Part shown: one piece after another, positions 1 to 44,311 of the stretch | Layout of the letters: every line of letters starts with the position of its first letter | How positions within the stretch are numbered: the stretch's first letter is position 1 | DNA from: Psammoneis japonica | Lineage: Eukaryota | Length of the DNA stretch: 47,322 nucleotides | Reading direction: 5' to 3' | NCBI GenBank assembly: GCA_008632985.1 | Contig: QPGO01000164.1 | Span: 124,001-171,322, forward strand | Notes under the pieces: model-generated | What the model was told of the DNA's origin: nothing | The model's input: the letters and a program-made list of their open reading frames with translations, nothing else | Database searches by the model: none | Translations under genes and position numbers: made by a program

Positions 1-585
1 TGTCGCGAAGCGCTTCTCAAAATGTCTTCCAATTGAACACAGCAAAATGTCTGCTGTTGGCAAAACAGAGTCACTGTGGGCAAAATAGATCCCCGTCCTT
101 TGCGTGCAATGACAGCGGCACGACAATGCAATGCACAACAACACCATGGCGAGCAATGCAAACACCATTCACTCATCCACCAGCTGGCATTTCCAGACAA
201 GATCAAAGCTGTTGGACAATGTTCATGTGCTTCATTCCTGGGTCAAGTTGGGTTTCTTCTCATTGCTTGTTGTCGTGTCACTGCTTGCTTTACAACGTCT
301 TGACCCACGCCATGTTTTTTGCTTTCTTCGCTTCTGCTCCATCGCGTGCGTGCCACAGCTTTTCCTGCAGGGTGTGGCCAGTTGCTCATCACATCAAACC
401 CAAATGTGCGCGACCAACTGGCCTTGCCCTGGCTAACTCATGCAGCACTGCACTCCCCCGCGCTGACCGCGCTGACCCCCGGCTGACCCAGGGCTGACAC
501 CGCGTGCAATCCCACAGCGCGCGGCACTGCACGTCAGCAGTGCGGAAAAAATGACCGTGCATTCCATGCAGACCACGAGCTCTGG

Positions 586-713
586 CGCCACCCGAGTGTG
601 TCACTCGAACTCTGACGTCCGCAAACACTGGAGCGAACCCCAAAGTTCCGCCACCCGAGTGCGTCACTCGAACTCTGACGTCCGCGAACACCGGAGCGAA
701 CCCCAAAGTTCCG
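586..713. repeat. 63-bp tandem duplication (2 copies)
   Basis: cgccacccgagtgYgtcactcgaactctgacgtccgcRaacacYggagcgaaccccaaagttc starts at 586 and 649; the three differences are all CG vs TG/CA. Confidence 0.9.
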
Positions 714-963
714 ACCATTTGCTCACCCGAATCGCTCGCTCTCTCCCCCTCCTCCTCCTCCTCCTCCACACACACACAAAGATGTGACCAACCAAATGCA
801 AACACCACATCGTGTCGCATCCGGACGACCTGCAATGACTGCTGTCAACATGCCCCACCCAACTTGACAAGCAAATCTCAAAGATGGTGGAGGTGAGTTG
901 TTGCCATGAACCGTGGCTTCCTTCCTCTTTGGAAACAGGAGGTTTGTTGTTTTGTCTTTGCTT

Positions 964-2708
964 CTCAGCTGTGCTGCTGCACGTGCGTGGCACACCACTG
1001 GTGGTTTTTGGTGTTGGTTTCCACTCAGCTGAGCCCCATTCTCCAGCTCAGCCCACCCACTCAGCTGAGCACAATGATCCCTCATCGGCTCAGCTGAGCC
1101 TTTTGTTGAATTTTTTCTCAGCTGAAGGATTTCACTCACCTGAGATTCTTTCTTCCTTTGTTTGCAGACCCATCTCCACCCCCACCAGGGCGAAGTTCTG
1201 CTGCTTTGGTGTCTCAGCAGAGGACTGCTGAGATTGCCAGTGCTGGGAGACGTGTTGCTGGAGCTCCTCCTCCTGGTGGTGCCTCCACAGCTGCAGCTGT
1301 TGGCGGCGGCAGTGCTGGTGCCAGCGCCGCTGGAGCCCGTGGCAAGGGCAAGCGCAAGGGTGCCAAGGGCCAGAGCCAGCCCAAGAGGCACACAAGGGTG
1401 CACACCAGGCTGCATCTGCCCATGCTTCTTCTGTGGAACCTGGCATCATTCCCTTGCCTCAGGGCGAAAAGGAGCTGTTGCAGCACCTCATTGCTTGCTG
1501 CAAGGAAATTATGGATCTGAAGGTTCCGCCCACTGTTGGGGAAGGCCTGATGCCCAGCAACCCCAAGGCTGCTCACAAAAGTTTTGCTGAAAATTTGGGT
1601 GCTGTTTTTGCCTTCAAGGCGGTGTTTGGATCTGGCCAGAAGGTCCCTGGCAAGGTTTTTGCCACCATGCATGGAACAAACTGTCTGCCTGACCACGTCA
1701 AGAGGCTTCGTTCTGAGGACACTGAGGCCAATTGTGAACATCTCTGTGCCAAGTGTTTCAATGTTTTAGACAAGCACTTTCCCCTGGGACACTCCATGGG
1801 TTTTGGGGCATGGTGGGGCCGACTTCAAGCCGCAATCAAGGAGGACAAATTTTGGGCCCCCGGTGTTCATGGCTGCAATGCACCTGGAAAGGGTTTGCTG
1901 TGTTGCGGATTCCTCATCATTCTTCTCAAGCACCAAGTGGTGAAGGACCGTCAGCACCAGTTGGAGCTGGTTGTAAAACTCTAGGTTGCAGTCTGTAAAA
2001 CCAGTTCATGAAAAACCGTCGTGTCAATGCACTGAAATCAGATCTGCGCAAGACTCCACAGCACTGCAATTTCATTGCTCATTGGCCAGATGGACCAGAA
2101 ACCCTTCCATCAGGTTGGCGTTGATGTCTTGGTGCCTGAGATCTTCAACACAAACGTTGGAGTGCCTGCAGTGCTTGAGGTTGTGACAGAAGTGTTTGAG
2201 AGCCTTCTTCTGCTTTTTCTCTCTCTCTCTTTGCTTCTTTCTGTTTTCACAATGAGGAGCAAGGACCAAGCTGGATGTGGAGGAGTTGGCAGGGACTGAA
2301 GCTGCTGCATCAGGTGGGTTGGCTGCTGCTGGGTGTGGGGCTTGGCCAACCAAAGTGGGGCGCACTGGCGTCTCATCCAAATGGAGGGTGAGACCTTGGT
2401 CATTCCATCTGGTGGCATCTTCCAAGCCTTCTCTCAACTGCTGTTCCTCTGCCTCCTTTTCAAGTCTCGCCAGGCCATGCTGCATGCCTTCATCCTTCTT
2501 TGGCCTGAAATGACATGAACAAACAACAACGTTGTCAGCTGAGTGCGGTGGATGACAGGGTGTCTCAGCTGAGCCACCACAATCTCAGCTGAGGGACATC
2601 AGATGAGACATTTCTCAGCTGAGATCTTCAAACCAGCTGAGAAAAACAAGCAACAACATTCTCAGCTGAGCATGTGAGATCCCAGTTGAGCACAAGGCAT
2701 CAGCTGAG
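964..2708. repeat. Two clusters of the palindrome CTCAGCTGAG (about 964-1143 and 2535-2708) flanking a degraded TA-depleted segment; possible subterminal repeats of a decayed element
   Basis: Perfect or near-perfect copies at about 964, 1024, 1060, 1089, 1117 and 2535, 2563, 2584, 2613, 2633, 2661, 2700. Confidence 0.55.
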
Positions 2709-4244
2709 AACAACAAACACAACCGCGTGCAGAATGTGACAAGACGGCAACAACACACCACACCACACCACACCCCAAAAAGCAAGCCACAAGAAGAGCA
2801 AGAGAAGCTCACACAAAAGGCAACAGAGCAAAATGGCAGAGCCTCCACAGAGGATCAAAGAATGAAAAAGGTGTTCCACAGAGCCAGCCTGGGTTGAGGG
2901 GTTGATTGATGATGGCCAAGGCCTTGTTGCGGCGCTGTTGTGTTTTGTGTTTTTTGGAGTGGGGCGAGTTGATTGGAAATGGCACAGCACCACACAAATT
3001 TAATGCGTGGCATTGCAACACATTCCATTGTGCGTGCTGCAGTGGATTGCACAGAATTGTGCTAAGACAATGACCTCCTGCCATTGGGTCAGCACACAGA
3101 GCCGTTGTGCACTTTGTGTGGGCTTGGTGTGTTTTTGTGTGGGAGGGCACTGTGTGCCCAACCATGGAGCTGCCCTCCAACCATGAGTTCTGACCTCCTG
3201 TGCCAACAGTGCCAGGTGCGCGCACGTAGAACAAAAACAAATGAAAAGAAATGACCTCCCTGTGAAGGTCAGTGCATGGCAGGGACAGCACTGCACCGCA
3301 ACGAACAGAAAACGGCAGCGCAGGTGATGATGGATTTTGTCCACGATCAATTTTTCATAACGCCCGAAGCCAAAATTGCCTGTCTTGCCATTTTCGCAAT
3401 GAACAAGAATGACTGTGGCACTGTCTGGAAGCGGACCTTCTCCAAGTTCAAGCAGCCTCATTTGACTCCTCGAAACCAACCACAATCATGAGTCCAACTC
3501 TTTGAGAAACGAGAGCCAAGAAATTTGTAGATCGCATCAGATTGCAATGGTCGGACTGCACCGAGGAGCAGCAAATCCAAGCAAAGAAAATTCAGTTGCC
3601 GGACTTCACATGGAGCCCAGCCAAAGGCAACACTGGGGAAAGTGCTGGTCGCCACATGACTGCTTTTGAGGTGGAGTGGGAGAACTTTGTTGGCAATCTT
3701 TCAGAGCCTCATTGCACGGCATTCTTGACATTCGAGCATGTCTTCTTCGACAAGGCAGCTGTGACAAATTACATGGCGATCCGAAAGCAGCTCAGTTGCC
3801 CTGTGCATGCACCAGGCGCTGAAAAAGAAGATGTGTTGCGACTTTGTCGTTGTGAAAATTGTGAGCTGGTTTAGAGCAGAGAAAATGGGATCGTGCGAAC
3901 AGGGAATCTTGCCAAATCCCTGTTCGTTCGCATTTGGATCACCATCAAATCGATCGTGCGTTTGCATTGTGGATCGTGCGAATCAAGCCATCATGCGCCA
4001 TGCACGAGTGATGTCATCGTGTGGAATCACGCTGCCATCGTGGGCCAGACGACGGGCTAGTGTGCTTCACACGGACGCTCTCTTGGCATCCTTCTGGAAT
4101 TGCCTAAGACCCAGAGCCACGCCCTCCTGTGGTCGTGCTTCCCAGGTGCGTGTTGACAACACTACGTTGCCATGCACAAGAGGCTTGTGCACGGTCTCGC
4201 CGTGTTGTCCAGTGGCGAGGCACACTGCACACTCCCCCATGATC

Positions 4245-4830
4245 AGGGCCGTCAAGTGACAGGATGTCTTGCTGGTGACAGGGTGCAATCTGCCGCAGAT
4301 TGCACGTGTCCATCAGCGCTCCATTCTGGACATGCAACGTGCCGTTGTCACACACACGGACAACTCTGGCGGGTCCTGCACAGCTGTCAGAACCGTGCTC
4401 AGAGGATTGTTCCTGTTTGACAAGTGCCAATTGCCCTGCGGTGCATTGATGCTCCTTGCGTTTCTGATTTTCACGCTTGTTGTTTGGGTGGACAAGCTTC
4501 TGCTTTCTGGTTTCTATGTGCTTCCACTTGGCACGATGGGCAACAGACAAAACCGCATCGCGTCCGAAGACCAATTGCGTGGGACTTGCACGCGTGGTCG
4601 CATGCACCGCAGCTCCAATGGCAAAGGCCACTGCGGAGAGGATGCCACTCCATGGGTCATCTTTGTCCAGTTCCACATCCTGCACTGAAAAGGAACGTGC
4701 CATGTTGCCAAGTGTCTGGCGCACACGTTCCACTGTGGCATTTGCCTGTGGATTCCGTTTGCTTGTGGGTTTCTTCAAAATCCCACAGTCATTTTTAATC
4801 ATCTGGCTAAATTCTGCCATAAATTCTGTG
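4245..4830 (-). pseudogene. Gypsy integrase core/C-terminal fragment
   Basis: EFMAEF...NPQANATVERVRQTLGNM...DPWSGILSAVAFAI...SPTQLVFGRD. Confidence 0.88.
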
Positions 4831-4835
4831 GCGTC

Positions 4836-5406
4836 ATGAACTTCTGCCATGCGTTCAGCACACCGCACTCGAACATGTCGCACAGTTCGTCATTGGGCAA
4901 TGGTGCCGGTGTTTCTCCATCCTCCGTCACGGGTGGAAACTGAGAGACACAGCCGTTAATTTCAACAGCCCTCGTGACGCAGTCACGAGGAGAAACCTCT
5001 GCGGGCTTGCGCATGAAGTGTCGCAGACAATGCTTCTGCAACAGTGCCGCCCCATGTGGGAAGATACTTTCCTTTAGCTTCGCGACGCATGCTGCATGCG
5101 CAGTGTTGGTTTGGGATGCCTGCTTGTCAGCGGCATTGTTAAATGACGTCAGAGCATCGCCCTGCAGTGGGTCACGCATGAGGGCAATTTCGCTGGCCCG
5201 GTCGTGATGTTTTGTCCTTCGTGCACGCGATCCACGTTGCGTAGAAAGATCAGGAGTGTCTCGCATGTAGCCGTGGAAAGGTGCGGAATGCCCATCTCGT
5301 GCGTTGGACTGTCCGGATCAGTGGGGTTGTTGCGTAGCTTGAACGTCTGGTGCTCGCCCTGCTGCAGCTCTTTCTTCTCCGGCCGTGCGACAATCCGCTT
5401 CTTCAT
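4836..5406 (-). pseudogene. Gypsy gag fragment (frameshifted)
   Basis: FKLRNNPTDPDSPTHEM...GQNITTGPAK...LQGDALTSF...RHFMRKP...LPNDELCDMFECGV resembles diatom Gypsy gag. Confidence 0.75.
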
Positions 5407-8400
5407 GGTCGTTTTAAGATTTGTGGTCCTGCCAACATTTCGCAGTTTCGTTTCTGTAGATTTCGTTACCTTGCACAACATGCGGGAGCAACATCACTGT
5501 GCCCTGTGCATGTGCTGGGCGCTGAAAAAGAAGATGTGTTACGACTTTGTCGTTGTGAAAATTATGAGCTAGTTTAGAGTAGAGAAAATGGGATCGTGCG
5601 AATGGGGAATCTTGCCAAATCCCCATTCATTCGCATTTGGATCGCATCAAATCGATCGTGCGTTCGCATTGTGGATCGTGCGAATCAAGCCATCACGCGC
5701 CATGCACGAGTGATGTCATCGTGTGGAATCACGCTGCCATCGTGGGCCAGACGACGGGCTAGTGTGCTTCACACGGACGCTCTCTTAGCATCCTTCTGGA
5801 ATTGCCTGAGACCTAGAGCCACGCCCTCCTGTGGTCGTGCTTCCCAGGTGCGTGTTGACAATGCCACGTTGCCACGTACAAGAGGCTCATGCACGGTCTC
5901 ACCGTGTTGTCCAGTGGCGAGGCATGCTGCACAGTGGCATCTGTTCCGCCCATGCCAGTGTCCTTTTTCAGCACTGTGTTGAGAGCTGTCATGAAGGTTC
6001 CCAGGAAGAGAACCACAAAATGCTTGACATTTCATCTTTCACTCTGAAGGATCTGCCAAAACCAATCCAGAAGCGATTCATTGCGGAGGGTGTCACCAGG
6101 TGCAATTCTTTGCAACTCGTCCAACTCTTTGCTGGGATGGAGGACGACCTGTGTTCAAAGCTCACACCGTGCAAAAAATCTGCAGACGCGGATGTTCGTT
6201 GCACTGATGTCAAAACACTTTTCAAAAGATGTGTCCAGCAAAACGAACCCGGTCTCATTTCCTGCTTTAGGGTTGGCGGCGAGTTTGCTGAGAATGCCAT
6301 CCTTGAAGGCCCCCTTGATGACGAGAGGTGCAAGCAAATTGTGTCAGAAAGAGGCGGCAAAGCAAACATCCATGCCATGATCCTAACCGGGGCTTGTCAT
6401 TCAGACAACGATGATCACCATTGGTTTCTACTTCAAAACACTCACCAGGGTGATTGTTTCAAGATCATTGATGGGGAACATTTGGCGCCATGCAATGCCA
6501 CTGTAAGTTTTGCTTTGTCTGTTGACATGTCATTGAAAGGCAACCTACAATGTCGTCATTGGCAAGCACTCCGAGGCGGCATTCGATGTGGAAGAGTGCG
6601 CAGCGAAGTTTGAGGCAGAAGGGCAAAGCAGAGCTTCTGAGGACATGCAGTGGGGCTGCTCATGTTACGTGTCCTGTTCACCCCAAATGACAAGTCTAAT
6701 TGCACGCCAATCACTCTCTGGTTCGGCTCATTTTCACGCCAATTGGCAGATTCTAGTGGATTTTGACCTTGTTCTGTGACAATTCTGTTGCTCTGGCAAA
6801 CAAGTGCCAGCCACCAGTGGCTTGCAGTTGTTCTTTTTAAGCCATTCCATCATTTTCATTGCACATTTTTACATGGCATCTGATTGTTCTGTGCAAAGAT
6901 GGGCTCATTGCTGGAGATTGCACCTCTTGGAATTTGATGCTTTTTTCCTTCCTTGCATGAACTCAACGTTGCTCTTGCACCCAGAACTCTCTTTGCACTT
7001 GTGAACAGGCTCCTTTCAATTCTTCTGCAAAGTCTTTCTCTGTTGTGCTTTGGTGTTGCTGTGTTTTGCATCACCCAACACAAAGTGCCTGTGATTTTGA
7101 TGTGGGTGATGGTCAATGACCAAGTTTTGCTCTTTTGCAATGGCACATTGCACAGCACCCCTGTCAATGCTCTGCCAATTTGACCATTCTGAAGATGAGC
7201 AGCAAGTTCAGAAAATGTCTGCCAGATGCCCTTGGGTTGGTCTGGAAGGTGCAGGAGAAGCTGCAGAACCACAGCAAGAACCACAACATGAGCACACAGG
7301 TCTTTGTGTTGTTTTTCTGAGAAATTTGATGCTTTCCATCTTTGTTGCAGCAACCGTGTGCTTTGACCTTATGCTCCATTGTGCTGCTGCAGGGCCTCTG
7401 GCAGGGATTGTGTGCAAGAGCCAAACCCATGAAAGCCATGCAAAAATTGCACCAGGCAATCTCCAGACTGCCCACTTGATGTTTTGCTTTGGGAGAAGGG
7501 GCGTCACCAGTCAGTGCAGCTGGCTGAACAAAATCTGCCTGTCAGTGCATTTTTTTTTGTGGTTTGCCAGCACATTTTTTGCACTGAGAAGCCATGAAGC
7601 CCATTCAGAATTTACCACAACTGGCAAAAACCCCAAATGCACTGATTGAATGAAGGCAATTGTGCCATCAACTTTGCTTGATGCGGGTTGTTTGTGAAAG
7701 TGGCTTGGAGCTCACACAACAGCTGCTCAGGCCCTCTTGGGTTCTTCCCAGGATCAAAGTCTGGGGCCATGAAGAAGTGCCAGTGGTTGGGCATCCTTGC
7801 CAGAACCCCAAGAAATCATTGACACTGAGCCAGTGGCCCTGCTTCTGGGTGTGCCAAAGAAGTTTATTGGAGAACCAGCAGCGGTGGAAGACCAGCAGCA
7901 CACATCTGCAGATGAGGAGCACAACAGAGAAAACAGAGATGTGTTGCCCCAAAATGAACTGCCACTGCTGCTCTTGAATGAATGGAGTGGGTGCTGATTT
8001 CATGCACTTCACAGCCTTGCTTTTCCTCTCCAGTTGCTGTTGCTGCAGCTCACATCTTTGACGACAAAGCCAATCATGCCTGCTTTTCAAAGTGCTGAGA
8101 GATGCAGAGACACTGTGTGCCAAGAGAATGTGGCAAACAACAAACAATGACCACCAAAGCCAACAAGAAAGCACCCAAACATCCCAGCAAATGCATGTGC
8201 TCATTGCATCTGGAATCATGATCATCATGCTGAGTGCCATGAGGAGGCTGTTGACCAATCAAGGAGGAGTTCATTTTCTCAATTTTGATGGACCCTGTTC
8301 TTTGGGCTTTGGCCTGAAAATGCAGAGCACCAGCAGGCTTGGGTGCACCTAAAAGCAAAAGATTCAAGCAAGTGGAAAGAGGACAAAGCACAGGCCAGCG

Positions 8401-8734
8401 CCAATGTGCTCCACAGCCTTCACACTTTGCACACACGGATGTGAGGGGAGGAGCATCACCATCAACTCAAAACTTGTTCTCTGCTTTTGGGTGTCATGGT
8501 GCAATCACTCATTGTGGCTGGCACAAGCTGCGTGAAGCCAGGCAAAGGCAGATGAGGCAGGTTGCTCTCAGCCACAATGACAAGGCAGCTTGCCACTGTT
8601 CCTGTGTTGATGGGGCAGTCTCAATGAATGCAAAACCTCTTCAATCTGACTGCGCATGCAGGAGACATCCTGGCTGGCCTGAAACAACAACAGCGGGAGT
8701 GCAACAAGCTGACAGTGCGTCTGCCACCTTGGAG

Positions 8735-9009
8735 CAATCTTGAAGGTGCAATGCACTGGTGCTGTGCACATGAACCATGATCCTCAATTGCGCACAGCAA
8801 CCAAAAGTGAGATGGAACCACTGCACACAGATTGTTTCAAATCACATCACAGCATCTCTTGCCACTCTCACAAAATCACCATCTGCAATCCAACAAAGCA
8901 CTCTCCAATTTCTCCAAAAATGGCCAAGCTCATTGTGTTTGCCCTGCTTTTTGCCGCTGTTGTCTTGTCGACCACCACGACCATCAAGGAGGACAATGTG
9001 GTGCATTCC
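8735..9009 (+). pseudogene. Degraded 5' fragment (upstream region plus signal-peptide start) of a secreted-protein gene; paralogous to 26396-26680
   Basis: Shared blocks aaccatgatcctcaat, tttcaaatcacatca, ctctcacaaaatcaccatctgcaa, gaggacaatgtggtgcattccc; ATG at 8920 reads MAKLIVFALLFAAVVLS. Confidence 0.6.
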
Positions 9010-9181
9010 CCCCTTCTTGCCCAGCAAGTCAGTGCAATCCAAAATGTCTCATCTAGAGTGCGGAATTGCTCAAGATTTTCTCAATGGTGTGCATTGCAAA
9101 TCATCTCCAGGAGCACACAGGCATGGCCCCAATGCAGGCGACAAGGGTCAAAACCAATTTGAACATGGAGAATCTGTGAAG

Positions 9182-33524: not shown

Positions 33525-35447
33525 ATGAAGAACCAAGCCGCCGACAAAGAATGCAAAAACAAAAACGACAAAGACGCATCGCGTGCGGATAGAACTGGTG
33601 CTTCCAGTTCCAGCATTTCCTACGCAGCGTACGCCGCTTCATTTGATGACAAGCAGCCGCAACAACGTGACGATGTAAAAGGACTACCTTCGCGTCACCA
33701 AAATGAATTTCAAAAGAAAGACCACAAGGCCGAATCTCTTGGAGAATCTGTTCTTGATAACAGCGTCATTTCCAACAAAGATCCCGGGTCTCGGTATCGA
33801 TTAAGCCAAGCACAACAAGGGCCAAAAACGGAAGCTTCAGGTGACGAAGTTGCTCTTTCTCATTTTGAGCCTACTGATACGCCGCATGATGCTGGTGTTG
33901 TTCCTGGGGCAGTTCGCGTGGCTGGTCCTGGAGTTGACTTGACCAGTGACCGTGAAGAAGATGATACCTTTGACATTGAGATGGAACAACAAGCAAATCC
34001 TACTATTGCTGATACTACTTCGTCTCAAGCACCGCAGCATCAAGGCGAAACTCTCCTGCAGGCTGAACTTGTGACACCCTCAAGCAATGATGGAAAAGAA
34101 ATGGCGTCCGCGTCGGCTATTCCTGTCCATCCTTGGAAAACCCGTTTGTCTGTTGCTGTCCTTGTCTGTATTTTAGTGGCTTTGTCAGTTGGCATCGCTG
34201 TTCCGCTTACAAAAAGGTCGTCTTCGCCTTCACCGCCAGCAACCTTGGCGCCGTCGACTTCGTTTCCAAGCAGTAGCCCTACTACAACCCCGGCGCCGAC
34301 TTCGCAAGAACAGATTACGGTCGTTGTTGGGCTCGACTCGAAGCCTCGCGAAACGGGATGGAAACTGGACTGCGACGGAACCAATAGGGCGAACTTTCCG
34401 ATTGGAGTGTATGATGAGAGGAGTGCTAATCGCAATTTGACTGCTCAGTTTCCTGTTACGGTTGGACAAGAATGTACATTTGTGTTGGAGGATGCAGGTG
34501 GCGACGGCTTAGAAGACGGGAGATTTTTCCGGATCCACTATGGACAAGTGTATTCAAGTAACGGTACTCTTTTGGCCAACGGGGACGGCAATTTCACGTC
34601 TAAAACGCAGGTCGATTTTACCATGGTAGCTCCACTGACGCAGGCTCCAACTACCTTTCCGTCAGCATCACCAACGACCACTTTCCGACCTTCTTTGGCT
34701 CCGTCAGTATCTCCGACAATATCGTTTGTGCCATCGATTTTTCCAACGAGAGATCCAACATCGCCTCCGACTGCGGCGCCAACGACTCGTCCAACTCCAG
34801 CGCCAACTCTTTTGCCAACTCAACTGCCTACTTCGGTGCCAACATTCGCCTTGACTTCACGCCCGACCCCATTTGGTACGATTATCGGTCCTCCTCCGCC
34901 ACCCGGCCCTCCGTCTCCGTCACCGCGACCCACGAGTCTTGTTGCTACTTCTCAACCAACGCCAGCTCCAACAAGCTTTCCAACAAAAGAGCCTGAAGGA
35001 TTCAAAACGATTCCTCCCACCCCATATCCAATGACACAGCATCCGACTCGGTTTCCAACTCGAGCTCCTACGCTGTCTCCAACGGTTTCGCCTACTCCAA
35101 GCATTCCTGTCAAACTCACGGTAGTGATTCAGCTGGATGAGTATCCATCGGAAACAGGGTGGAGCATGGTTTGTGACGACACGGTGTTGATAAGGGTGAA
35201 TCCCTCAACCTATGCCCGAGCAAATGAACGCGTGACAGAGGTCTTGACAACCAGAGCCGGAGCATCGTGCATGTTTGAAATTTCAGATTCATTTGGTGAT
35301 GGAATTTGTTGCAAGTTTGAAACGAGAGGCTTTTATCAATTGTTTTTTGGAGAGGACACCAGCGATAGGGCCAATCTGATTACGTCAGGTGACGAATTTG
35401 GAGCATCAGAAGCATTTCCATTTCAGGTGAGAGAGCCTGTCGGATGA
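33525..35447 (+). CDS. Single-pass membrane protein with PGAVRV motif, Pro/Thr/Ser-rich stalks and two repeats of a diatom-type extracellular domain, 640 aa
   Basis: Intact ORF; TM LSVAVLVCILVALSVGIAVPL; repeats VVVGLDSKPRETGW..DAGGDGL and VVIQLDEYPSETGW..DSFGDGICC; probable ATG at 33525. Confidence 0.88.
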   Translation: MKNQAADKECKNKNDKDASRADRTGASSSSISYAAYAASFDDKQPQQRDDVKGLPSRHQNEFQKKDHKAESLGESVLDNSVISNKDPGSRYRLSQAQQGPKTEASGDEVALSHFEPTDTPHDAGVVPGAVRVAGPGVDLTSDREEDDTFDIEMEQQANPTIADTTSSQAPQHQGETLLQAELVTPSSNDGKEMASASAIPVHPWKTRLSVAVLVCILVALSVGIAVPLTKRSSSPSPPATLAPSTSFPSSSPTTTPAPTSQEQITVVVGLDSKPRETGWKLDCDGTNRANFPIGVYDERSANRNLTAQFPVTVGQECTFVLEDAGGDGLEDGRFFRIHYGQVYSSNGTLLANGDGNFTSKTQVDFTMVAPLTQAPTTFPSASPTTTFRPSLAPSVSPTISFVPSIFPTRDPTSPPTAAPTTRPTPAPTLLPTQLPTSVPTFALTSRPTPFGTIIGPPPPPGPPSPSPRPTSLVATSQPTPAPTSFPTKEPEGFKTIPPTPYPMTQHPTRFPTRAPTLSPTVSPTPSIPVKLTVVIQLDEYPSETGWSMVCDDTVLIRVNPSTYARANERVTEVLTTRAGASCMFEISDSFGDGICCKFETRGFYQLFFGEDTSDRANLITSGDEFGASEAFPFQVREPVG

Positions 35448-38389
35448 GGTTAATACTAATCAGTCGTCGGCCAGCAGCGTTACAAGCAAGGCATGCGCAG
35501 CTGGTTCATCAGGTTCATACTGTTGCATGTCATTCATACTTACTATAATGCATAAGATGGAAATTGTTGTGAACCCCATCGTAAGTCCTGTGCCAAACCT
35601 GTCATCATTCTGTTTCATTCCTTGAGGCTCGAAGTTGGTTCTTCCCTTGGCGGAGGAGTGTTCGGCACCGTCGGCTTCGTACTTTTTTCTTGCTGATGCG
35701 ACAAGGGGGCCGCCATTGCCGTTGTTCGCAAAAATCTGCTGCTTGGCTATGATGTGTCTAAAATCAAATGTAAGATGACCACAAGTGCTTCACAATGCTA
35801 AGACAACGCACTTATGTTCCCACACATTACTCCCGTTCTCCACAGAAGTTTTTCTTATCGCCACAAGGTGACAACAATTGAGCCGTCGTGGACGCAGAAT
35901 GTCATTGTGGCACCGAAAGAAAAAATGAAGGATTCCATTTGCCCTTTCGAGCTCTGACAAAGATCGAGATTGGCGGCCCAGGTGGACAGCTAAAAAAATC
36001 TATGTAAAAAGACACAGATTTGTGCGTTTGTGCGTTTGTGTTTTCCGGAGCGGCCCACTTGCGACAGGCCTGTGTGACGCGCGCGCCGCAACATCAAGAG
36101 CTTTGCGTCGGTTGCTCTGTCAACATCTTCTGTTAAAGGGCAGCAGACTTCTTTCTGCCCTCCAAGCAGGAAGCAAAAAGAAATGGAAAGACACGCAAAA
36201 TGGTGACCACGGGCGTGCCCATCACAATTTCTTGGAGTGGAAAGAGAGTCAGGCCAATCCACAGGCTGGTCGGGAATGCCGTGAATCATGCAACAAACCG
36301 AGTCCATGGTTCTGGACAAGCCAAATGTGTGGTGTCTGCTTGACTCATCCACAGAAGCCCACTTGTCCAACATTCTCTTGCATTTTTCAATGTTTTCAAT
36401 GACTTGAGATGCACTCAGCACATTTGCAACCTCGGCTGCTTCCTTGTCAGACAATGTTTGGTTTGTGCATCAAACCAAGGCAAAGCCAATGTGACAAGAC
36501 TTCTCAAGTCTGGGTTGTGATCCACCAAGTGCTCTTGTCAAAACTGTCAAGATGAAAAACACAATCCCTTGATTGGCTCACTGTGAAACAACCCAGCATT
36601 GCAGGCATGGGCATCACCACTGAGCCACATGATGTGGTGTCGTTGTTGCTGACCACCAAAGAACTGTTCCAACTGGTCATGCTGTTGTTGGACTTGGCAA
36701 CGCAAGTGCGCCATGCCTTGACAAAAGCCACACAAATTTGGCATTGATTTGTGATGCTTTTGTTTGTGACTCCAACAATGCATCATCGTGTTCCATCCAA
36801 CTTTCAGTGGCCGTCATGACAAGAGAAGAGCAACCGTGTTCTCTTGAGAGCTCATCATGGCCTGCAAATGTGCTGTGCACAACAATCATTTCAGCTGGCT
36901 GTGAGAGAGAGCCAACCATGAGATTGTGTGGCTCTTGCTGTCATGTCATTGGACAGTGTCAGCAGACATTAGAAAGACCATCCACCACAATCGAAAAGAT
37001 CTTGTTCAGTGCAGGTTCAGCGCAAATCCTGCTTTCTTTGCACCTCAAGGGCCTTGAGCGTGCACAGGACTGCACCTCTGATGTGTCCTGCCCCCCTGGC
37101 TCCTTGCGACAGCACTTTTGCATGTGGTTCCCTCTGACACTGACAAAACTGCTGGGGCACTTGTGACCATCCTCCGATGGCTGCAAAGGTGCACGTGAGT
37201 GTGGCTTTTCCCACTGGTGTGCGTTGCCAACGGACGGAATCTGCACCTCTCGGGACTGTTTTCCTCGCGAATTGTGTTTGCTTCATAGAAGTGGCAGGAC
37301 TGCGGCGAGCGCCGGCTGCATGAAGTCAGGTGGGACTCATTCAGTCACGCATGCGCACACACCCTCCGAACGCCACTCACCATGAGAATCGGAACGGCAT
37401 TTCATGCCATTGCCAAACCTTTTCAACAACAGCAGTGCTTTAGAACAGTTTCTGCCATCACATGGAAACCATTTTCATCACTTGTTTGAAGGCAATTGCT
37501 CAATCGAAAGGTCAAAAAATGGATTTTGTAATTGCATCACCATCCGCTGCTCTTTTTCGTGTGCTGTCGCAATGCAATCGTGTTGCGCTTTCGTGTCACT
37601 GACTCGTTCTTTTTGTTTGATGCACTCATTTCATGCGCTCATGTGGGGAGCATTTCGACCATGTTAAAAGCCCTGACGAGGAACAACGGCTCTCAGTTTC
37701 ATGTCGACATTTGAGCCATTTGTCTGTGGCCGACATTTCTGCATCAATCGAAATGGGGCTGTTGCGTGTCATGCACTGTCTTTTGGATCAAGCCAAGCAA
37801 CGGATGGTCGATTTCATTGATGATGTGGATTGTGGTGTGCGTCATTTGATGGCAGACAACGGCAAGTGTATGATTTGTGGAGCTCACAACTTGCTGCCGC
37901 GAAAAATGATGATGTTCACCTCGAATGCAAGCAACTGACGACACTTTCTTGCCATTTTGCATTTTTCTTACTCACTGTTGAAAGCTTTAGGTGCTTGTTG
38001 CTTCACTGCGGTTCTACACTGCATTTTTAGCCGTCAATGTCCAACCTGTCATCTCGACTTCTCATGGTAAAAATTGGGTTGGATGACATGAATCCAGGAG
38101 GAGGTTGGGGTCAGAAAATTCGCCGGCCGGTGGTTTTGCAATCTCTTGACGGCAAGTGGCACTTTTGTGATGTGAACTCTGCTTTTTTTGTTGAGACGTG
38201 TGCCAAAAATGTTCTTTGCTCATTGTCCAAAGCTGCCAACACATCCTGCTCGATCAGGGACCCTTCCTGATCGGCGGAACAGCGGTGGCACTGATGCTTG
38301 CGGAGAAACTTCTCCACAAGCTGGTGGACACGGACAAGGAGTCGTTGCCGAGTTCATCTGAAATTGCGCAACAAGCCATCATGTGTCCA

Positions 38390-41300
38390 CAAACATGACC
38401 GGCGCACTTTCGTGTGGTGTCCTTTCAAGAGGCAGCAGTGGCCAAGGCTTTGTCAACACACTTGGAAAAGTTGCGACTCTTTTCGGTGGCTGTGAACTTG
38501 CGGCGGTGGCACTTCTAAGGAACCCCCAACACATTTCAATGCCTTCTCCTGCAATCTCACAATGGCGCTTTGGCGAGAAGATGATAGAGACAGTGCATGT
38601 CTCGTCGGATGTTTCGCCAACAAGCCATTCAAGCACTGCAAGCTCCTCTGCAAAGTCTTGACACCGTGCAAGCAAATCGGTGAGTGCAAAATCACGGTGC
38701 TCTGGCTTGACATTGCCCTCAACATCTGACCATTCCTTTGGTGCTGTGACCCGATGCTGGTCTTTCTTCTCGGGGTCAATCCAACCAGTCTCGTACAAAA
38801 TCTGAAAAACACCTTTTGGAGTGCCATCCCAGCTTTTCGTCATTGGAACAAAGTTGTCTCGATTGGAATGTTGTTTTGCCATGCAATCTCCTGCAGCCGC
38901 TCGACTTCATGCCCGCGATTCGGCTGGATTGGCCCCTTTCCGAGCAATTCATCAAAGAGTTCTGGTTTGGCACGTGGTCATTTGGTTGGTCTTGGAATTG
39001 AAGGCTCGTGTGTTGGGATTGGAGGCTTGCATTCGCGAGCGAGTTGCTGGAGCTCACCGACTTTCCTCTTGTCATCTTCGCTTGTGAGATTCCTTGCCAC
39101 TAAATCTGTTTGAGATCTGCCTTCTTCCGTCGCTTTCCCTGCTTAGGAGGCAATGGCTTTGGATGCTGCTGATCAATTTGCTCTTCCTTGCCAAGCGCCT
39201 TTGGACCATCCAGACTTGGGTCGGTTGAATTCTTTGGAAAATTGAAGGTTTGGTGGTCACCAGCCTTGAAACTGCCACCAGAAGGTTCCTCAATTTTGTC
39301 AACAAAAGGTCCAAACACATCTTCAGCAAGTGATGTGTCGCGCATTGGTGGCTGATTCCCCCCGAAACCACCGTTCATGACATTGACATTCAACGACTCC
39401 GGTCGCTTCTTGGCATGCCCCGAACTTTGGTCACACAGCAGTGCAAAATTCAACCAGGGCAGATTCCTCACAGGCAGTCAGCAACGTCTTCTGTCTGGAC
39501 TGCGGCACGCGTGTTGTTCCAATGCCCATCTTTGTCTTTTCCATGGCAAAACTTGGTAAGAAAAATGTCACGAATGTCGTCTGCAGATGCAAACTGCTTC
39601 TTCTTGCTTGAGCCAGTGTCACAGACTTCCACGGTGCTTTCTCTGTCCAAACATTCACTCTTTGCCCCAGACCAACAGCTGTTGATGCAAGCAAGGACCG
39701 TGGGAGTGATGTCCGGCAAATCAGCTCCGCCAAAGCCCATCACAAAGCCTGTGAATGCACTCAACATTGTGCCATTACCTGGACTCTTCGGCTGAATGAC
39801 AGCACTGCCCTTTGAGTCATGCCACACCCTGCTTGAAAAGGCACACTGGTTCACAATGGCTTCGTCTTGACCAACTGTGATCAATGGTGCTTGTTTGGGT
39901 CCTTTCGAACTGAGAAACTGCAGGTGAACTCAACACCTTGAAAAACTTGGGGCTTGGAAAGTGGCAGCAATGCCGCTGCATCATCAAGCACACAGAACTC
40001 CTTGCAAGCCTTCGGGAGCTTGCTTGTGGTGCTTGAGATCTCTGATTCGCAAGCTGAACCCATGTGGGCATCAGCGTTTTGTGTTCTGTGAACCAATCGA
40101 TGAACTTTTTGCAAGCTCTCACATTCTCGGGACTCTTGTGTCTGTCGCAGCAACAGTTCCAACAGCTTGTTGATGGCGGTGCCCTGGGTGAGCAAGCCAG
40201 CAAAATGCCAAAGAGTGACAAAGAGTCTTCATGCCAAACTGTGCCAACACACTCTTCTGTTTCTTTGTCATTGCGTCTTCATCGGCTTCATCTTCTTCAT
40301 CTGATTCATTGTCCGATTCATCATCGTCGCAACTTTCCGGGTCGTCCTTCTCGTTTCTTCGTGCACACGGTCTAGAAAGCTTGTTTGGAAGTGCTCCATT
40401 GCAGTGTCTGTTGAAATTGTCTGAGTGCACCTTTGCGTTGAGAACTTGCTTGACTTCCAACTTCAACTGCGGGAATGCTTGAAAGACTTGCGGCTCGCAT
40501 GCTTTCCAGTTCGCGAGTGGATGTTCGAACTTGCATTGGCGTCTGAAAGATGCATGCCAGCTCAAAAGTGTTCAACCATTTGTGATCAAACATGGGCTTG
40601 TGGGTGAATCATTGATGGCTTTGATTGTGGCGGAGGTGCAGTCTTGAAAGGCAAACCCTCTCTTTCCACCCTGCCTGCCTTGCGCTCTGTGATGCTTGTT
40701 GAGAATCATCAGGCAAAATGTCAGCATGTGCGACATCTTTCCCGAAATGTGTTGCACATCCTTGGTTGAAAGGACATCGTCCACCACACCTTCTGCCGGC
40801 TTGGTTGGCACACTTTCCAAAGGCCTCTGCAATCAAACAACTTCGGAGAGTGGGTCAACGCGTTCGTAATTGCCGTTCGGACGTGACCGCTTTTGGAATG
40901 TTGAGAAACTTGCGAGCCACATCGGACTCCAGTGCGTCAACCTTCCGTGACTTGTTGCTCTCACCTCCTCCTTCTTCTTCTGCTTGTCCTCCTTCATTCA
41001 CAGGTTGGCGTTGAGCAGATTGGGCAGCTTGGGACTTGGCAACACCGGATTGGCGTTGAGCAGCTTGGGTGGATTGGGCAGCTTGGGACTCGGCAACACC
41101 GGATTGGCTTTGAGTGGCTTGGGTGGATTTGGCAGCTTGGGACTCGGCAACACCGGATTGGCGTTGAGTGGATTGGGCAGATTCGGCTTCTTGGGACTCG
41201 GCAATGCCGGACTCGTGCATGCGAGTGCTGTCGTCTCCCCCCCCTTCTTCTCCATTCACAGGTTGGCGTTGAGCAGATTGGGCAGCTTGGAACTCGGTGT

Positions 41301-41754
41301 CACTGGATTGGCGTGTGCGAGTGCTGACACAGAACCAATCTTTCTCACACGTTTGCTGCCAACAATGCCACGGGATGTCACACGGCAACTCAACCAATGC
41401 TTTGCGCGGACACACGCAGCAGAAGAGATGGCGAGTGCAGGAGATGACACCGCTCGTCTTGTTTTTGATCTTTGTGCTTTTGATGACACTGACGATGCGA
41501 ACTTTGGTTCCGCGGATTGGATCTTTCAGGTGAGGGCCGTGTTGGGGATGCTTCTTCAATTCATTGTTCATTTGTTTTGCTGTGACATCTTTGCTCACGC
41601 CCCGGATCTGCAATTTGGTCAACCAAGCGTCCGCGCTTGCCCGGTGCCCAACGAGAGACGACGTGTTGCGTGGTTTTATCGCGTCATTGAATGCTTGATG
41701 AATCGTGCATTGTTTCGGCACCATTTTATGAAATCCACTGCATGCAATGCACAA
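38390..41754 (-). pseudogene. Degraded large DDE transposase of IS630/Tc1-like type with a long N-terminal region
   Basis: Motifs in shifting frames: VGQDEAIVNQ (D1), PKSPGNGTMLSAF, GKDKDGHWN..EDVADCL, LCDQSSGHAKKRPESLN..MNGGFGGNQPPMRDT (D2), SPKRHCEIAGEGIEMCWG (E). TIRs not located. Confidence 0.7.
40997..41291. repeat. Coding minisatellite (45-54-bp units, QRQSGVAESQAAQSTQAA-like on the minus strand)
   Basis: Units ttggcgttgag...gggactcggcaacaccgga repeated four times, plus a duplicated ttcacaggttggcgttgagcagattgggcagcttgg. Confidence 0.85.
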
Positions 41755-44311
41755 ACCCGTTCATTGGCACACATGTGAAGCCTGAGAACCAGTTGCATGC
41801 AGTGAATGTGCTTGCTGGCAAAAGTCATTTGCATCAGCATGCCATTGTCGCACCCGTCGTCATTTTTTCCCACGGTGCACCACGGTGTCCAGATGGAAGC
41901 GTCGACGAGTCCCAAGCAGGCAGGACTCAATTTCACTTGGCAAAAGTGTGGCCAGTGCACAAATCCCTTTTCTGGACATTGTGGGACACGTTAAACTTCC
42001 TGCGTCAACATGCCTGAGACACGGTGAGAAGGATGCACACCACGGGAGGATCGTCAAGCTCGTGCGCACGACTTTGGAATGCTGCGACCGCACAGGAATC
42101 TATTGGAATTCCTTGGCAACAAGAGTTGGATTCTCTTGACAGGACAGACCCAATTGATCATGCACTTGTCAATGTGAAGGGACGCCACTTCTTGATCAAG
42201 GTGACACTCGACAATTCATCTGGTTTGAAGATTTGGTCTGCCCAGACCATGTCCATGGCATCCCTTCTCGTGTCCACTGCGAAACTGAGATTTGGACCTC
42301 TGTGAATGGGTTGTCTCATCAAAGACACCATCCAGTCTTGAATCGATTGTCGCAGCAATCCTGGCATGATGTTCAAAGAGATCACGAACGGGAGATGGCG
42401 GGCGCGGGTGACACTGACGATGAGACAGCCCCTCTGCCAAGGTGCAGTCATGGATGCTGCTGGTGATGGAAATGAAATGAAGGAGGAGGTGTCGGAAATG
42501 GGTGACCAACCAAGAAGGCCATTGCCAGATTGGGGTGCTCGTCATGGGATCTCAAGAGACTCCTGCACCGAACCTCCCCAAACTCGGACTTTCTCCGTTG
42601 TCCACTGCGCCAGTGGAGAACCTCTGGCTTTCACCGCGAGCCGGTCATCCCGCCCTTCTTTCTTGCAACAAACAGAGTTTGAACCTGCTTGGATTGGCGC
42701 AATTGATCGGGAACTGAGAATGTCGATGGGTGGAAACGTTTGTTCAAAACGAACCTCCCATCTCCCCTCCAACAACACGATGCCAGTTGTGGTGAATGTC
42801 TTGCCAGTTCATCCTGAAGGAGATCAAGAGGAGGCTGAAGAAAGGAAGGACCCTGCAAGTCCTGATGGGGAGCAACAGGAATGAGGTCAGTCCCTGCGGG
42901 TCAAGAGGGCAGTCCAGAGATCGCCTGGTGCACTTTTTGCACAGAAACTGCCAGAGAGCCAATCATGCACATTCCGCACAGACGCAGTGCGAAACAGAAA
43001 GCATGGCGCTCCATCACGCGACCTCACGATGACACCACCTGACGACAACGCATCAAAATGGCGTCGTCCGTGTCTTTCTGCAGCTCCTCTTTCACTTGCC
43101 CGATTGCTCCAAAAGGGCCAGGGGAAGCTGACAAGCTTTCTCTTGCAATGGAGCAATGCAAACAAAAGTTGTTTTTCACTCCAAAATCTCAGAATGCAGT
43201 GCAACCGATTGTCAAGGCGAACTTGCACGTTGGCGGCAACAACGCCAGTTGATGTTCACTCCAGAGCAACAATGGAGATGTGGTGCCCCAACGAAGTGAA
43301 GTCTGTGCCCCCATGACAAATTTTGAAGCCAGCTCTTCTTGTTGGCATGCAATCTTTAGCTGCTTTTTAGACTTGACAAAATGATCATCTGCCCCGGCTG
43401 TCACCCTCTGAGTTTGTTGCATTGGCTGACAAACTGGGCAAGTGAGCCACATGTTTCTAGCTCACAAACTGCCTTGCAGCCAAAAGAAGCAATCCAAACC
43501 TTCAGAACAGCCACCGTGCACTGGTCTGCCGAGTCAAACTCCGCATCACTGAGTGGAGGCGGGGAGAACCATTGTCAATGCACTGTGGCGGATCTGAGCT
43601 CTTGAGAGCTTGTCCAGCTTTTGACGCCACAGCCCCAAGTCACCACATTTGTCATGAAGTCAGCCTGATGCTGTGTCTGTGACTTTGCCTCGTTTTGGAA
43701 TTGCCGCGGCCATCGCATTGCAGAGTTGACATTCTTGACAAGGAAAAGTGTTTCTGGGACACCTTGCGACGACGGAGACCCCGCAGAACAAAAGAGCAAT
43801 GCAGAAAGAGACAACACATGTGAGTCAAACGGGCAGTGATGCACAAAGCCTCAACGAAACACACAGCACGAATGGTGGTGCACAAGGTCGGTCGTGATGC
43901 AGCAGAAGCGACGCTGTCAACGCGAACCTTTGGTGAGAATTTTCACCATCAGCCACCCACATGAAGCTGTGCACTCTCGAGCTTGTCACATGCCTTGTGC
44001 TGTGACGCAAGACATTCCGTTGAAAGCACACTGCAAAGTACCTCAGAAACAACCGTGTTTTTGAAATCGGCAAAAAGCCATTGTCGTGTTGTTTTGCGTG
44101 TCATTTTGAGCCGCGAGCCAGAAACAGCCCCAAAAGTTGTTCTACAGGGCAAAATGCACTGAATCTACACAGATTTCGGTTGCACCAGGCCACGTAGAAA
44201 ATGAACGGGCCAAGAACTGTGGTGCGCCCACTTGAGGGCAACATTTGCAGTGACCCAAAGAGGCAATCGGAATCGGAACAGGTAGAAGGCAAACAGTTCC
44301 GATTCCAAGGC

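Follow-up and report, generated by a model that had tools for sequence, protein, structure and literature searches.

TpA-to-TpG/CpA hypermutation of non-genic domains in a diatom contig, probably akin to that described in Bigelowiella natans

Fungal RIP, as found in Neurospora and others, is a duplication-sensing process that converts CpA to TpA and raises the AT content of its targets, and the ADAR and APOBEC enzymes of animals edit RNA or not yet integrated single-stranded cDNA, with signatures on one strand only. The closest described system is that of Bigelowiella natans, where, in the accessible part of a preprint, integrated viral DNA is reported to undergo de novo hypermutation of TpA to TpG/CpA (Mettrop et al., bioRxiv 10.64898/2026.01.13.699255). 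According to that part, of the 231 single-nucleotide mutations that arose de novo in two viral regions, 230 are A-to-G or T-to-C changes, all of the GC-biased ones lie on TpA, and the mutations appear about 1,000 times faster than background, as bursts confined to some lines; clusters depleted in TpA and enriched in CpA and TpG are enriched in transposable element domains (reverse transcriptase, DDE), and the authors propose an ADAT2-like deaminase (10.64898/2026.01.13.699255). An earlier note on the DNA analyzed here, which held that such a process had no published description, is outdated by this 2026 preprint, and no report of a TpA-erasing process in diatoms was found in the literature searched. 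For dinoflagellates, older work cited in the accessible text of PMC11572971 describes the preferential replacement of thymine by 5hmU in TA and TC.

The window, which is the whole stretch of 47,322 nucleotides analyzed from contig QPGO01000164.1 of the diatom Psammoneis japonica, has observed-to-expected ratios (O/E) of 0.20 for TpA, 1.49 for TpG, 1.51 for CpA and 0.70 for CpG. A two-state segmentation on P(A|T) was used to call TpA-depleted (D) blocks and blocks with normal TpA (N), which identified five D blocks with a total of 35,097 nucleotides (74% of the window; 159 TpA, O/E 0.02–0.09) and four N blocks (O/E 0.51–0.56). When the N-block P(A|T) of 0.139 is applied to the 8,740 T residues in D, approximately 1,214 TpA are expected, and the binomial p for the 159 observed underflows to 0; the kilobase-scale near-absence of TpA described in the earlier note, with an ordinary level in the blocks of intact genes, is thus borne out by the segmentation. 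Per kb, the N blocks have 35.5 TA and 58.3 CG and the D blocks 4.5 and 39.6, a combined loss of 49.7; for TG and CA alike the figure is 74.2 in N and 100.1 in D, a gain of 51.8, so that the loss of TA and CG balances the gain of TG and CA. The CpG O/E is 0.23–0.69 in D versus 0.92–1.12 in N, the GC content is 0.50–0.53 in the three largest D blocks versus 0.46–0.51 in N, and runs tests on TG and CA within the D blocks gave z-values of −0.41 to 1.76.

D block 1 (positions 1–4795; 19 TpA, O/E 0.07; TG 1.67, CA 1.62, CG 0.53) is followed by an intermediate block (4796–5877; TpA O/E 0.36) holding a less mutated repeat copy at 5500–5933, and then by D block 2 (5887–22633; 89 TpA, O/E 0.09), which contains an actin pseudogene, a mutated MITE copy and a Copia element. 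At the right-hand end of D block 2, the 3′ LTR flank (22226–22633) has 0 TpA versus 32.8 expected, and from the sharp border at 22634 onward one TpA occurs per 10–50 nucleotides. N block 1 (22634–25035, plus strand; TpA O/E 0.56, CG 1.12) carries an intact ORF of 576 aa at 22778–24508, D block 3 (25042–27136; 9 TpA, O/E 0.07) is also strongly depleted in CpG (0.23), and N block 2 (27150–29800, minus strand; TpA O/E 0.55) carries an ORF of 334 aa at 28550–29554. D block 4 (29804–32424, or 29804–32435 in the segmentation; 4 TpA, O/E 0.02; CG 0.34) resumes past an intact MITE and reaches 33120, and its right-hand part (32834–33120; 1 TpA versus 17.1 expected), which ends inside the inverted-duplicate copy at 32912–33618, matches a small depleted block previously claimed at 32.8–33.2 kb. 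Directly after it, the TpA O/E is 0.72 (33121–33506), and N block 3 (33121–36005, plus strand, or 32443–36005 in the segmentation; TpA O/E about 0.5–0.7) carries an intact ORF of 646 aa at 33507–35447. D block 5 (36019–44846; 38 TpA, O/E 0.07) is followed by N block 4 (44851–47322, minus strand, ending at 47321 in the segmentation; TpA O/E 0.51), with an AAA-ATPase_like ORF that is open at the window end (45500–47320, minus strand; PF09820, E 2e-13) and a truncated sulfatase relic (44710–45506, minus strand) recognized from Sulfatase pieces in Pfam. The domains are therefore sharp-edged and take in all but the blocks around intact ORFs. The TpA in the gene blocks could also be kept there by purifying selection instead of by targeting.

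In the 219 stop-to-stop ORFs of the window that reach 90 aa or more, a Pfam search recognized four families and no others (Actin, RVT_2, Sulfatase in pieces and, once, AAA-ATPase_like), and no viral genes were recognized among them. The affected DNA comprises the Copia element, which is an LTR retrotransposon, the MITE copy, which derives from a DNA transposon, the copy of the host actin gene, and DNA without recognizable origin or repeat. The claim that depletion coincides with transposons and duplicates is overstated and can be followed in part from these matches: the Copia element, the MITE copy and the duplicates do lie in D, and parts of D look single-copy in the read contigs.

The element at 15172–22220 (minus strand) is a Copia (Ty1) retrotransposon with broken frames, recognizable from its direct LTRs of 277 nucleotides (15172–15446 and 21944–22220; 90% identical, with TG..CA ends), a 5-bp target-site duplication, GTTGT, at 15167–15171 and 22221–22225, and a reverse transcriptase (RT) at 16006–17807 (RVT_2, E about 2e-9), with relatives of up to 59–63% identity (E 1e-138); its integrase and gag were not recognized by Pfam. 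Its TpA O/E is 0.12 with a CG O/E of 0.86. Among 89 conserved RT columns, 10 are changed, six of them from Tyr to Cys or His, and of the seven conserved Tyr in the RT six now read Cys or His (4:2). The two LTRs differ at six CA-versus-TG sites, three TA-versus-TG/CA sites and five CG sites, together with five other transitions and 0 transversions; since they differ at CA-versus-TG sites, these mutations post-date integration. Related Copia RT sequences at 80 metagenome loci have TpA O/E values of 0.36–1.02 (median 0.725), and none of these loci contains a 1-kb window with a TpA O/E below 0.15; the TpA loss of this element is not a trait of its Copia lineage.

The actin pseudogene (9101–11005, minus strand) consists of a C-terminal ORF at 9101–10066 and an N-terminal piece at approximately 10874–11005, with repeat insertions between them (Actin matches in Pfam, E 8e-84 and 2e-11). 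Of its 12 conserved Tyr, six now read His, five Cys and one Phe, and the 236 conserved columns hold 63 changes, 20 of them TA>TG/CA and 10 CG>TG/CA. The replacement of conserved Tyr by Cys or His described in the earlier note is borne out in both genes (11 of 12 actin columns and six of seven RT columns, 17 of 19 together), with a Cys-to-His ratio of 9:8 over actin and RT. This actin copy in D block 2 is intron-bearing.

The MITE family is present both mutated and intact. The hypermutated copy (10148–10856, minus strand) is interrupted at 10279–10591 by a repeat related to 14198–14451, and a comparison with the intact copy shows 24 TpA sites converted to TG/CA, four retained and 0 changes in the reverse direction. 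The intact copy (32425–32833, plus strand), a TA-rich element of about 400 bp with terminal inverted repeats of 33 nucleotides (32425–32457 and 32788–32820), has 29 TpA (O/E 0.9) although it lies within D block 4, and a single X1 contig (depth 35) links 32427 with 32834.

Across 13 internal duplicate pairs there are 343 mismatched positions: 55 sites of CA versus TG account for 110 of them, TA versus TG/CA for 59, CG versus TG/CA for 73, other transitions for 47 and transversions for 54. The direct repeat of 435 nucleotides at 3797–4231 and 5500–5933 (93% identical), for example, shows TA/TG, TA/CA and CA/TG differences. The earlier claim that every duplicate pair differs mainly in this way goes too far: the pair 8716–9010/26378–26680, whose second copy lies in D block 3, has 21 transversions in 49 mismatches, and the tandem copies at 41.0–41.3 kb have some CA-versus-TG sites but no TA-versus-TG/CA site. 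The polarity calls take the N copy, or the consensus of the protein, as ancestral, and the samples are small, with 45 TpA sites in D/N pairs and 277 nucleotides of LTR. In the three D-versus-N pairs, 41 of the 45 TpA sites of the N copy have become TG or CA in its D counterpart and 0 changes run in reverse, and 28 of 49 CpG sites are changed to TG/CA in D, with three reverse changes; the TA→TG/CA change described in the earlier note, alongside CG changes, is upheld by these counts. The change is thus TpA→TpG/CpA, that is, A:T→G:C at a self-complementary TA step. Counted per base, transitions affect 41 of 93 TpA positions, against 7 of 143 in ApA context (A:T transitions), 3 of 105 for GpA and, at non-CpG C:G, 19 of 281. 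The TpA process outpaces other substitutions by a factor of tens to more than 100, and the decay of CpG to TpG/CpA in the same DNA by a factor of about 10; the LTRs and D/N pairs indirectly put it at roughly 30–150 times background. This estimate falls short of the approximately 1,000-fold figure given in the accessible text on B. natans (10.64898/2026.01.13.699255).

Removal of TpA also depends on the flanking base, being fastest in ATAT (0 in D versus 54 in N, although N is three-fold smaller) and slowest in TTAA (36 in D and 36 in N), with fitted hits of 2.36 for TA-T, 1.20 for TA-C, 0.75 for TA-G and 0.42 for TA-A. Error-prone patch repair of the polymerase eta type (WA motif), which the earlier note had offered as a candidate, is disfavored, since A:T transitions are rare in ApA relative to TpA and the D/N ratio of AA is 0.95.

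Taken together, the D blocks are the product of a real process that acted on DNA after insertion and on both strands equally. As a whole, they are probably best explained by TpA→TpG/CpA hypermutation of silent domains at the DNA level, resembling that of B. natans and saturated in this diatom. The process would be of the same kind as that caught de novo in B. natans, would be targeted by chromatin or expression state and not by sequence duplication, and may act episodically, or slowly enough to leave a recent MITE insertion untouched. The claim of a targeted mutator that kills transposable elements survives in that a polarized TA→TG/CA process in non-genic blocks has disabled the Copia element, the MITE copy and the actin copy, but not in its framing as a reverse form of RIP. 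An always-on, domain-wide mutator would be expected to have touched the intact MITE, which counts against the preferred explanation; its presence in a D block would be explained by recent insertion, which is an assumption. The intact MITE is compatible with episodic action.

As far as the accessible text of the preprint allows comparison, both systems show near-exclusive A-to-G or T-to-C change on TpA (41:0 here, with a CG→TG/CA component in addition), both are confined to discrete kilobase-scale regions of foreign or silent DNA (a comparison made here within the window), both leave behind clusters poor in TpA and rich in CpA and TpG, and in both single-copy DNA can be the target. They differ in that B. 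natans is a chlorarachniophyte (rhizarian) and the present organism a diatom (stramenopile); that the footprint here is saturated, its D-block O/E contrasting with 0.45 for the NCLDV region of B. natans; that it extends over about three quarters of the window, takes in a copy of the host actin gene and goes together with decay of CpG; that a flanking-base preference is seen here and is not reported in that text; and that mutations were observed de novo there, whereas only the end state is seen here.

As TpA is self-complementary, A-to-G and T-to-C changes are not distinguishable, and two chemistries have to be weighed. Enzymatic deamination of adenine in 5′-TA on either strand is a tentative candidate, favored at somewhat less than even odds, and the main alternative is modification of the TpA thymine (to 5hmU or 5fU) followed by mispairing. 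The latter belongs to a broader rival, that the mutations are a by-product of a base mark placed symmetrically on TpA in silent chromatin, either 5hmU/5fU from a thymine dioxygenase of the TET/JBP type or N6-methyladenine, which mispairs; an epigenetic mark would then cause mutation as a side effect, in place of a defense by mutation. TpA is palindromic and T-to-C change at TpA would yield the exact pattern observed, both strands are equally affected, and TpA and CpG are lost in the same blocks, as in marked heterochromatin; moreover, the accessible text on dinoflagellates describes a TET/JBP enzyme making 5hmU that silences transposable elements (PMC11572971). The likeness extends to a pyrimidine mark on repeats in a SAR lineage with a preference that includes TA, but no mutational footprint is described in that text, and TpC, which is part of the dinoflagellate preference, is undepleted here (D/N ratio of TC 0.94) (PMC11572971). 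The literature searched documents no modification of this kind in diatoms, TpA decay at about 10 times the CpG rate in the LTR pair would be a heavy cost for a mark, and the bursts in only some B. natans lines, as given in the accessible text, resemble the switching-on of an enzyme more closely than a steady decay (10.64898/2026.01.13.699255). The base-mark explanation is on this evidence unlikely, although it is the strongest of the rivals. Decay of the methyl-CpG type, which likewise turns a self-complementary YpR step into TpG/CpA on either strand in silent DNA, probably accounts for the CG part of the pattern only, as suggested by the CpG polarity and the low CpG O/E of the D blocks; it is unable to remove TpA, and TpA loss is the faster of the two in the LTR pair and is complete even where CpG is near intact, as in the Copia element.

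A second rival is duplication sensing as in RIP, in which both copies would be mutated along their duplicated length. As under RIP, kilobase-scale dinucleotide-specific transitions ruin transposons and duplicated genes here and spare the neighboring genes, the affected elements are disabled, and the internal duplicates, the MITE copy and the Copia element, which is of very high copy number (summed X1 depth 65,000–105,000 versus about 60 for unique DNA), all lie in D blocks. The polarity, however, is opposite, with TpA lost and GC raised, and RIP follows duplication, whereas here DNA spanned by a single contig is depleted (0 TpA at 22260–22633; 3 versus 94 expected at 25042–26541) and the D/N border at approximately 33120 lies within a copy of the inverted duplicate 30744–31367/32912–33618, which is partly spared, its partner being fully mutated. 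In addition, the intact MITE has the highest copy signal in the stretch examined (summed X1 depth 47,000–80,000 versus about 60 for unique DNA), and the hypermutated NCLDV region of B. natans is described as single-copy in the accessible text (10.64898/2026.01.13.699255). Duplication sensing is accordingly improbable, and the "reverse RIP" or "repeat-domain" label given in the earlier note is a poor fit.

A-to-I editing of retrotransposon RNA by an ADAR-like enzyme, fixed by reverse transcription, would be in keeping with a Copia retroelement among the targets, with the 5′ U favored by ADARs (as quoted in the accessible part of 10.64898/2026.01.13.699255) and with deaminase-driven hypermutation against selfish elements in general. 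It is already contradicted by the post-integration differences between the LTRs, by the equal representation of both strands in the Tyr replacements, by the mutation of a DNA-transposon derivative, of the intron-bearing actin copy and of the LTR flank, which are not retroelements, and by the fact that TAG is not the preferred context, and its probability is very small.

Read evidence came from runs X1 and X2, which represent one sample of one study, possibly the source of the assembly, with no platform on record, and therefore do not amount to independent confirmation. One X1 contig (4,282 nucleotides, depth 60.5) covers 22260–26541 with one difference and joins D and N sequence, another covers 35968–37021 with two differences, and X2 contigs cover 22992–24842 in N block 1 (0 differences), 27446–29647 in N block 2 (one difference) and 33404–35925 in N block 3; over 37571–37643 in D block 5, a contig of depth 308 has TA or CG where the window has TG or CA. 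That the true DNA is TA, miscalled at modified TpA in sequencing, basecalling or polishing, is hardly credible in spite of this single provenance, as independently built X1 contigs carry the depleted sequence at an even depth of about 60 in long clean pieces, which strand-dependent miscalls would break, the depleted DNA also has frameshifts, transversions and CpG decay, the same sites have different outcomes in the two Copia LTRs, and one assembly holds the MITE family in both states.

Under the preferred explanation of DNA-level hypermutation, an opposite-polarity counterpart of RIP, reported once before in one chlorarachniophyte with an enzyme that is still only proposed in the accessible text, has a saturated footprint in a diatom, and the process is not a one-strain curiosity. 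A natural enzyme capable of editing adenine or thymine in double-stranded DNA may lie behind it, and candidates could be narrowed to deaminase or dioxygenase genes that are common to both lineages and missing from footprint-free genomes. Transformation and knock-out tools exist for diatoms, which opens the question to experiment. A bolder and slightly less secure proposal than adenine deamination itself is that diatoms, and with Bigelowiella perhaps much of SAR, own a putative enzyme that edits TA in double-stranded DNA of silenced chromatin, most plausibly an adenine deaminase with the preference TAT > TAC > TAG > TAA, acting at more than 100 times background and having erased TpA from most non-genic DNA here. 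If true, this enzyme would in effect be a natural TA-specific adenine base editor, and mutation would be a main arm of transposon control beside methylation and RNAi.

The process bears on the evolution of GC content in repeats and affects diatom annotation, because hypermutated DNA retains long TGA-only ORFs and Tyr-free pseudo-proteins. In the N blocks, the 646-aa ORF has weak homologues in Pelagophyceae and diatoms, and the AAA-ATPase-like ORF, whose similarities agree with a diatom source of the window, has diatom homologues that are 63% identical, its best named relatives being from Bacillariaceae sp., Cylindrotheca fusiformis and Attheya sp.

The O/E ratios for the whole window are 0.20 for TpA, 1.49 for TpG, 1.51 for CpA and 0.70 for CpG. 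A two-state segmentation on P(A|T) resolves the sequence into five TpA-depleted blocks (D blocks 1–5, at 1–4795, 5887–22633, 25042–27136, 29804–32435 and 36019–44846), four blocks of normal TpA content around intact ORFs (N blocks 1–4, at 22634–25035, 27150–29800, 32443–36005 and 44851–47321) and an intermediate block at 4796–5877 (TpA O/E 0.36). The D blocks combined comprise 35,097 nt and contain 159 TpA (O/E 0.02–0.09), whereas 1,214 would be expected at the rate of the N blocks, where the O/E is 0.51–0.56. The depletion reported in the earlier note is therefore confirmed and is striking, and the small depleted block that it placed at 32.8–33.2 kb is also real, as 32834–33120 contains 1 TpA against 17.1 expected. 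The D/N borders are sharp: TpA is absent from 22226–22633, and from 22634 onward it occurs once per 10–50 nt. TAA falls to 1.7/kb in D versus 7.5/kb in N, and TAG to 1.4/kb versus 8.2/kb; because these two triplets are nearly gone, D DNA is rich in long meaningless ORFs that are closed by TGA only.

The direction of change was read from three internal duplicate pairs with one copy in D and the other in N. TpA sites of the N copy have become TG or CA in the D copy in 41 of 45 cases and are kept in 4, with no change in the reverse direction; CpG sites are changed in 28 of 49 cases, with 3 in reverse. When the N copy is taken as ancestral, transitions are found at 41/93 A:T sites in TpA, versus 7/143 in ApA, 3/105 in GpA and 13/125 in CpA, and at 28/105 C:G sites in CpG versus 19/281 other C:G sites. 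In D relative to N, the losses of TA (−31.0 per kb) and CG (−18.7) balance the gain of TG plus CA (+51.8). At 37571–37643, where the window has TG or CA, a contig of this read set that derives from a different locus carries TA or CG. The polarity of 41:0 in the duplicate pairs, together with the hits on a Copia element and a MITE copy, supports the proposal that a TA-to-TG/CA mutator disables selfish DNA. GC-biased gene conversion and selection against UpA are both rejected, since the effect is specific to TpA, is polarised and also occurs in pseudogenes.

Two conserved proteins serve as further yardsticks and agree. In comparison with 21 actins of 370–380 aa, the actin copy at 9101–10066 (minus strand) has no Tyr at 12 conserved Tyr columns, which now encode 6 His, 5 Cys and 1 Phe; at 236 conserved columns it shows 63 differences, of which single TA>TG/CA steps account for 20 and CG>TG/CA for 10. 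The Copia reverse transcriptase (RT) ORF, compared with 50 relatives, keeps all but 10 of 89 conserved columns, and six of the ten changes are Tyr to Cys or His, so that the element is young by ordinary mutation and yet has lost nearly all of its TpA. Tyr to Cys and Tyr to His stand at 9:8 when actin and RT are pooled. Of the 150 library relatives that rank best against the RT ORF, two public Copia-RT-like sequences approximately 50% identical to it (P0202 and P0272) contain no Tyr and 8–12% Cys plus His, the composition that this hypermutation leaves in a protein, and P0202 has Tyr to Cys/His at 5 of 6 conserved columns.

The Copia element at 15172–22220, with 277-nt LTRs bounded by TG..CA, a flanking GTTGT duplication and an RVT_2 domain, is a bona fide insertion, and it dates the changes. 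The two LTRs of one element are identical at insertion. The present pair differs at 6 CA-versus-TG sites, 3 TA-versus-TG/CA sites, 5 CG sites and 5 other transitions, with no transversions. The 6 CA-versus-TG sites require an independent change in each LTR, and the differences therefore postdate integration and were introduced in DNA, on one strand or the other. By rough arithmetic, approximately 27 of 32 ancestral TpA alleles have been lost in the LTR pair versus 5 of approximately 400 other positions, which places TpA loss, to an order of magnitude, at about 100 times background and ten times the CpG rate. The targets include the retroelement, the MITE copy at 10148–10856, the actin copy with its interrupting sequence, and DNA without recognisable origin. 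RNA editing followed by retrotransposition is ruled out, as the changes are post-integration, involve both strands and affect DNA outside retroelements. The TG and CA outcomes are balanced in D blocks, and strand-run clustering of the two was detected in no D block (z −0.41 to 1.76); a single D/N pair gives a hint of TG/CA runs (17 events in 5 runs by hand count, too small a sample). Contigs of the read run X3 (0.16 Mb) match only Copia/LTR and MITE pieces of the window, at 20001–20790, 22006–22197 and 32479–32818.

The survival of a TpA depends on its neighbouring bases: ATAT occurs 0 times in D versus 54 in N and TTAA 36 times in each, and a two-strand Poisson fit gives 2.36, 1.20, 0.75 and 0.42 hits where the base after TA is T, C, G or A, respectively. 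Error-prone synthesis by Pol eta is argued against by the unaffected ApA; TpC is likewise unaffected in D relative to N. Because TpA is self-complementary, A-to-G is inseparable from T-to-C, and adenine deamination and thymine modification are each compatible with the data.

With regard to what delimits the depletion, the term "reverse RIP" used in the earlier note implies duplication sensing, which is not supported. In the run X1 (unique depth approximately 60), one 4,282-nt contig spans 22260–26541 with a single difference and runs from TpA-free DNA adjoining the LTR through an N gene block into a D block, indicating that sequence remaining in one contig is also depleted. Furthermore, the D/N border at approximately 33120 falls within one copy of the inverted duplicate 30744–31367/32912–33618, and the part closest to a 646-aa ORF retains 17 TpA that are lost in the partner copy. 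Such limits agree better with targeting that follows chromatin or expression state, or with selection that protects genes, than with duplication sensing. Contigs of the run X2 match only N blocks (22992–24842, 27446–29647 and 33404–35925), beyond which the N blocks reach by roughly 80–360 nt on either side, and give no D-block cover; as its depth differs from gene to gene, X2 is suspected to be a transcriptome, and its absence from D is not evidence of silence. A look-up over 25001–35000 listed no RNA data set that carries the sequence. At 26671–27337, X2 contigs at a depth of 7,906 match partly, with loose ends, and carry CG or TA where the window has TG or CA, which suggests, from these letters, that a highly represented and unmutated relative of this D-block sequence exists elsewhere in the genome.

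A caveat to this reading is that an approximately 400-bp MITE-like element inside D block 4 (32425–32833), with 33-nt terminal inverted repeats, is untouched (29 TpA, O/E 0.9). Its summed read-contig depth is 47,000–80,000, approximately 1,000 times the unique depth, and one X1 contig of depth 35, about half the unique depth, bridges 32427 and 32834 by 12 other letters. This contig suggests that the insertion is recent and possibly heterozygous; it could represent an empty or excised allele, in which case the MITE family would have been recently active. An untouched MITE within a D block implies that the mutator either works more slowly than MITEs turn over or acts in episodes, as it does in Bigelowiella natans. 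A search for MITE copies in metagenomes with a degenerate 32-letter pattern gave no matches.

Related Copia loci were confirmed in metagenomes in 317 cases. In the best 80, the TpA O/E is 0.36–1.02 versus 0.12 for the window's element, and none contains a depleted kilobase, a set from which degenerate copies were possibly excluded; the loci serve as a baseline and show no sign of the process in environmental relatives, and TpA depletion is thus not a trait of the Copia family. Many of the 80 show strong CpG depletion (O/E down to 0.05) with ordinary TpA, indicating that CpG decay is common in these elements and TpA erasure is not. An artefact is improbable: the depleted sequence recurs in clean form in the read contigs, although every run comes from one sample, from which the assembly itself was possibly made.

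The earlier note knew of no published description, but the signature has been described in B. natans (bioRxiv 10.64898/2026.01.13.699255). According to that preprint, 231 of 302 nuclear single-nucleotide mutations in mutation-accumulation lines lie in an integrated NCLDV region and a virophage region; 230 of these 231 are A-to-G or T-to-C, all GC-biased ones fall on TpA, and they are seen in some lines only. It also reports 124 TpA-depleted clusters enriched in CpA and TpG, with low-TpA CDS enriched in RT and DDE domains, and its authors propose an ADAT2-like deaminase. Full-text literature searches on diatoms and on adenine deamination as a genome defence yielded only this preprint and no report of TpA hypermutation in diatoms. 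The window carries the same signature in a diatom, outside the group of B. natans. With it, a process described only very recently, whose enzyme is so far a matter of candidates, has a second and saturated case, this one in a lineage for which genetic tools exist.

Several minor features were also recorded. A purine/pyrimidine-coded self-comparison of the window revealed no repeats beyond those of BLAST, and an Rfam search gave no matches. An actin search for taxonomic placement was topped by tandem animal actins and carried no taxonomic information. Two direct-repeat pairs, at 3797–5933 (435 nt, 93% identity) and 12751–14786 (334 nt, 88%), have nearly equal spacings of 1703 and 1706 nt, respectively. 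The agreement suggests that a single small terminal-repeat element is present twice, with interiors that can no longer be aligned. In D block 5, three overlapping in-register 93-nt copies with 54-nt spacing (41011–41211, 84–91% identical) sit within long ORFs on both strands. At 44710–45506 (minus strand), the match of two ORF pieces to a sulfatase is limited to its C-terminal half (Pfam positions 185–301 and SGSH_C). The pieces straddle a D/N border and are probably a truncated relic; they adjoin the end of an AAA-ATPase-like ORF that has 63% identical relatives, the named members of which are diatoms.
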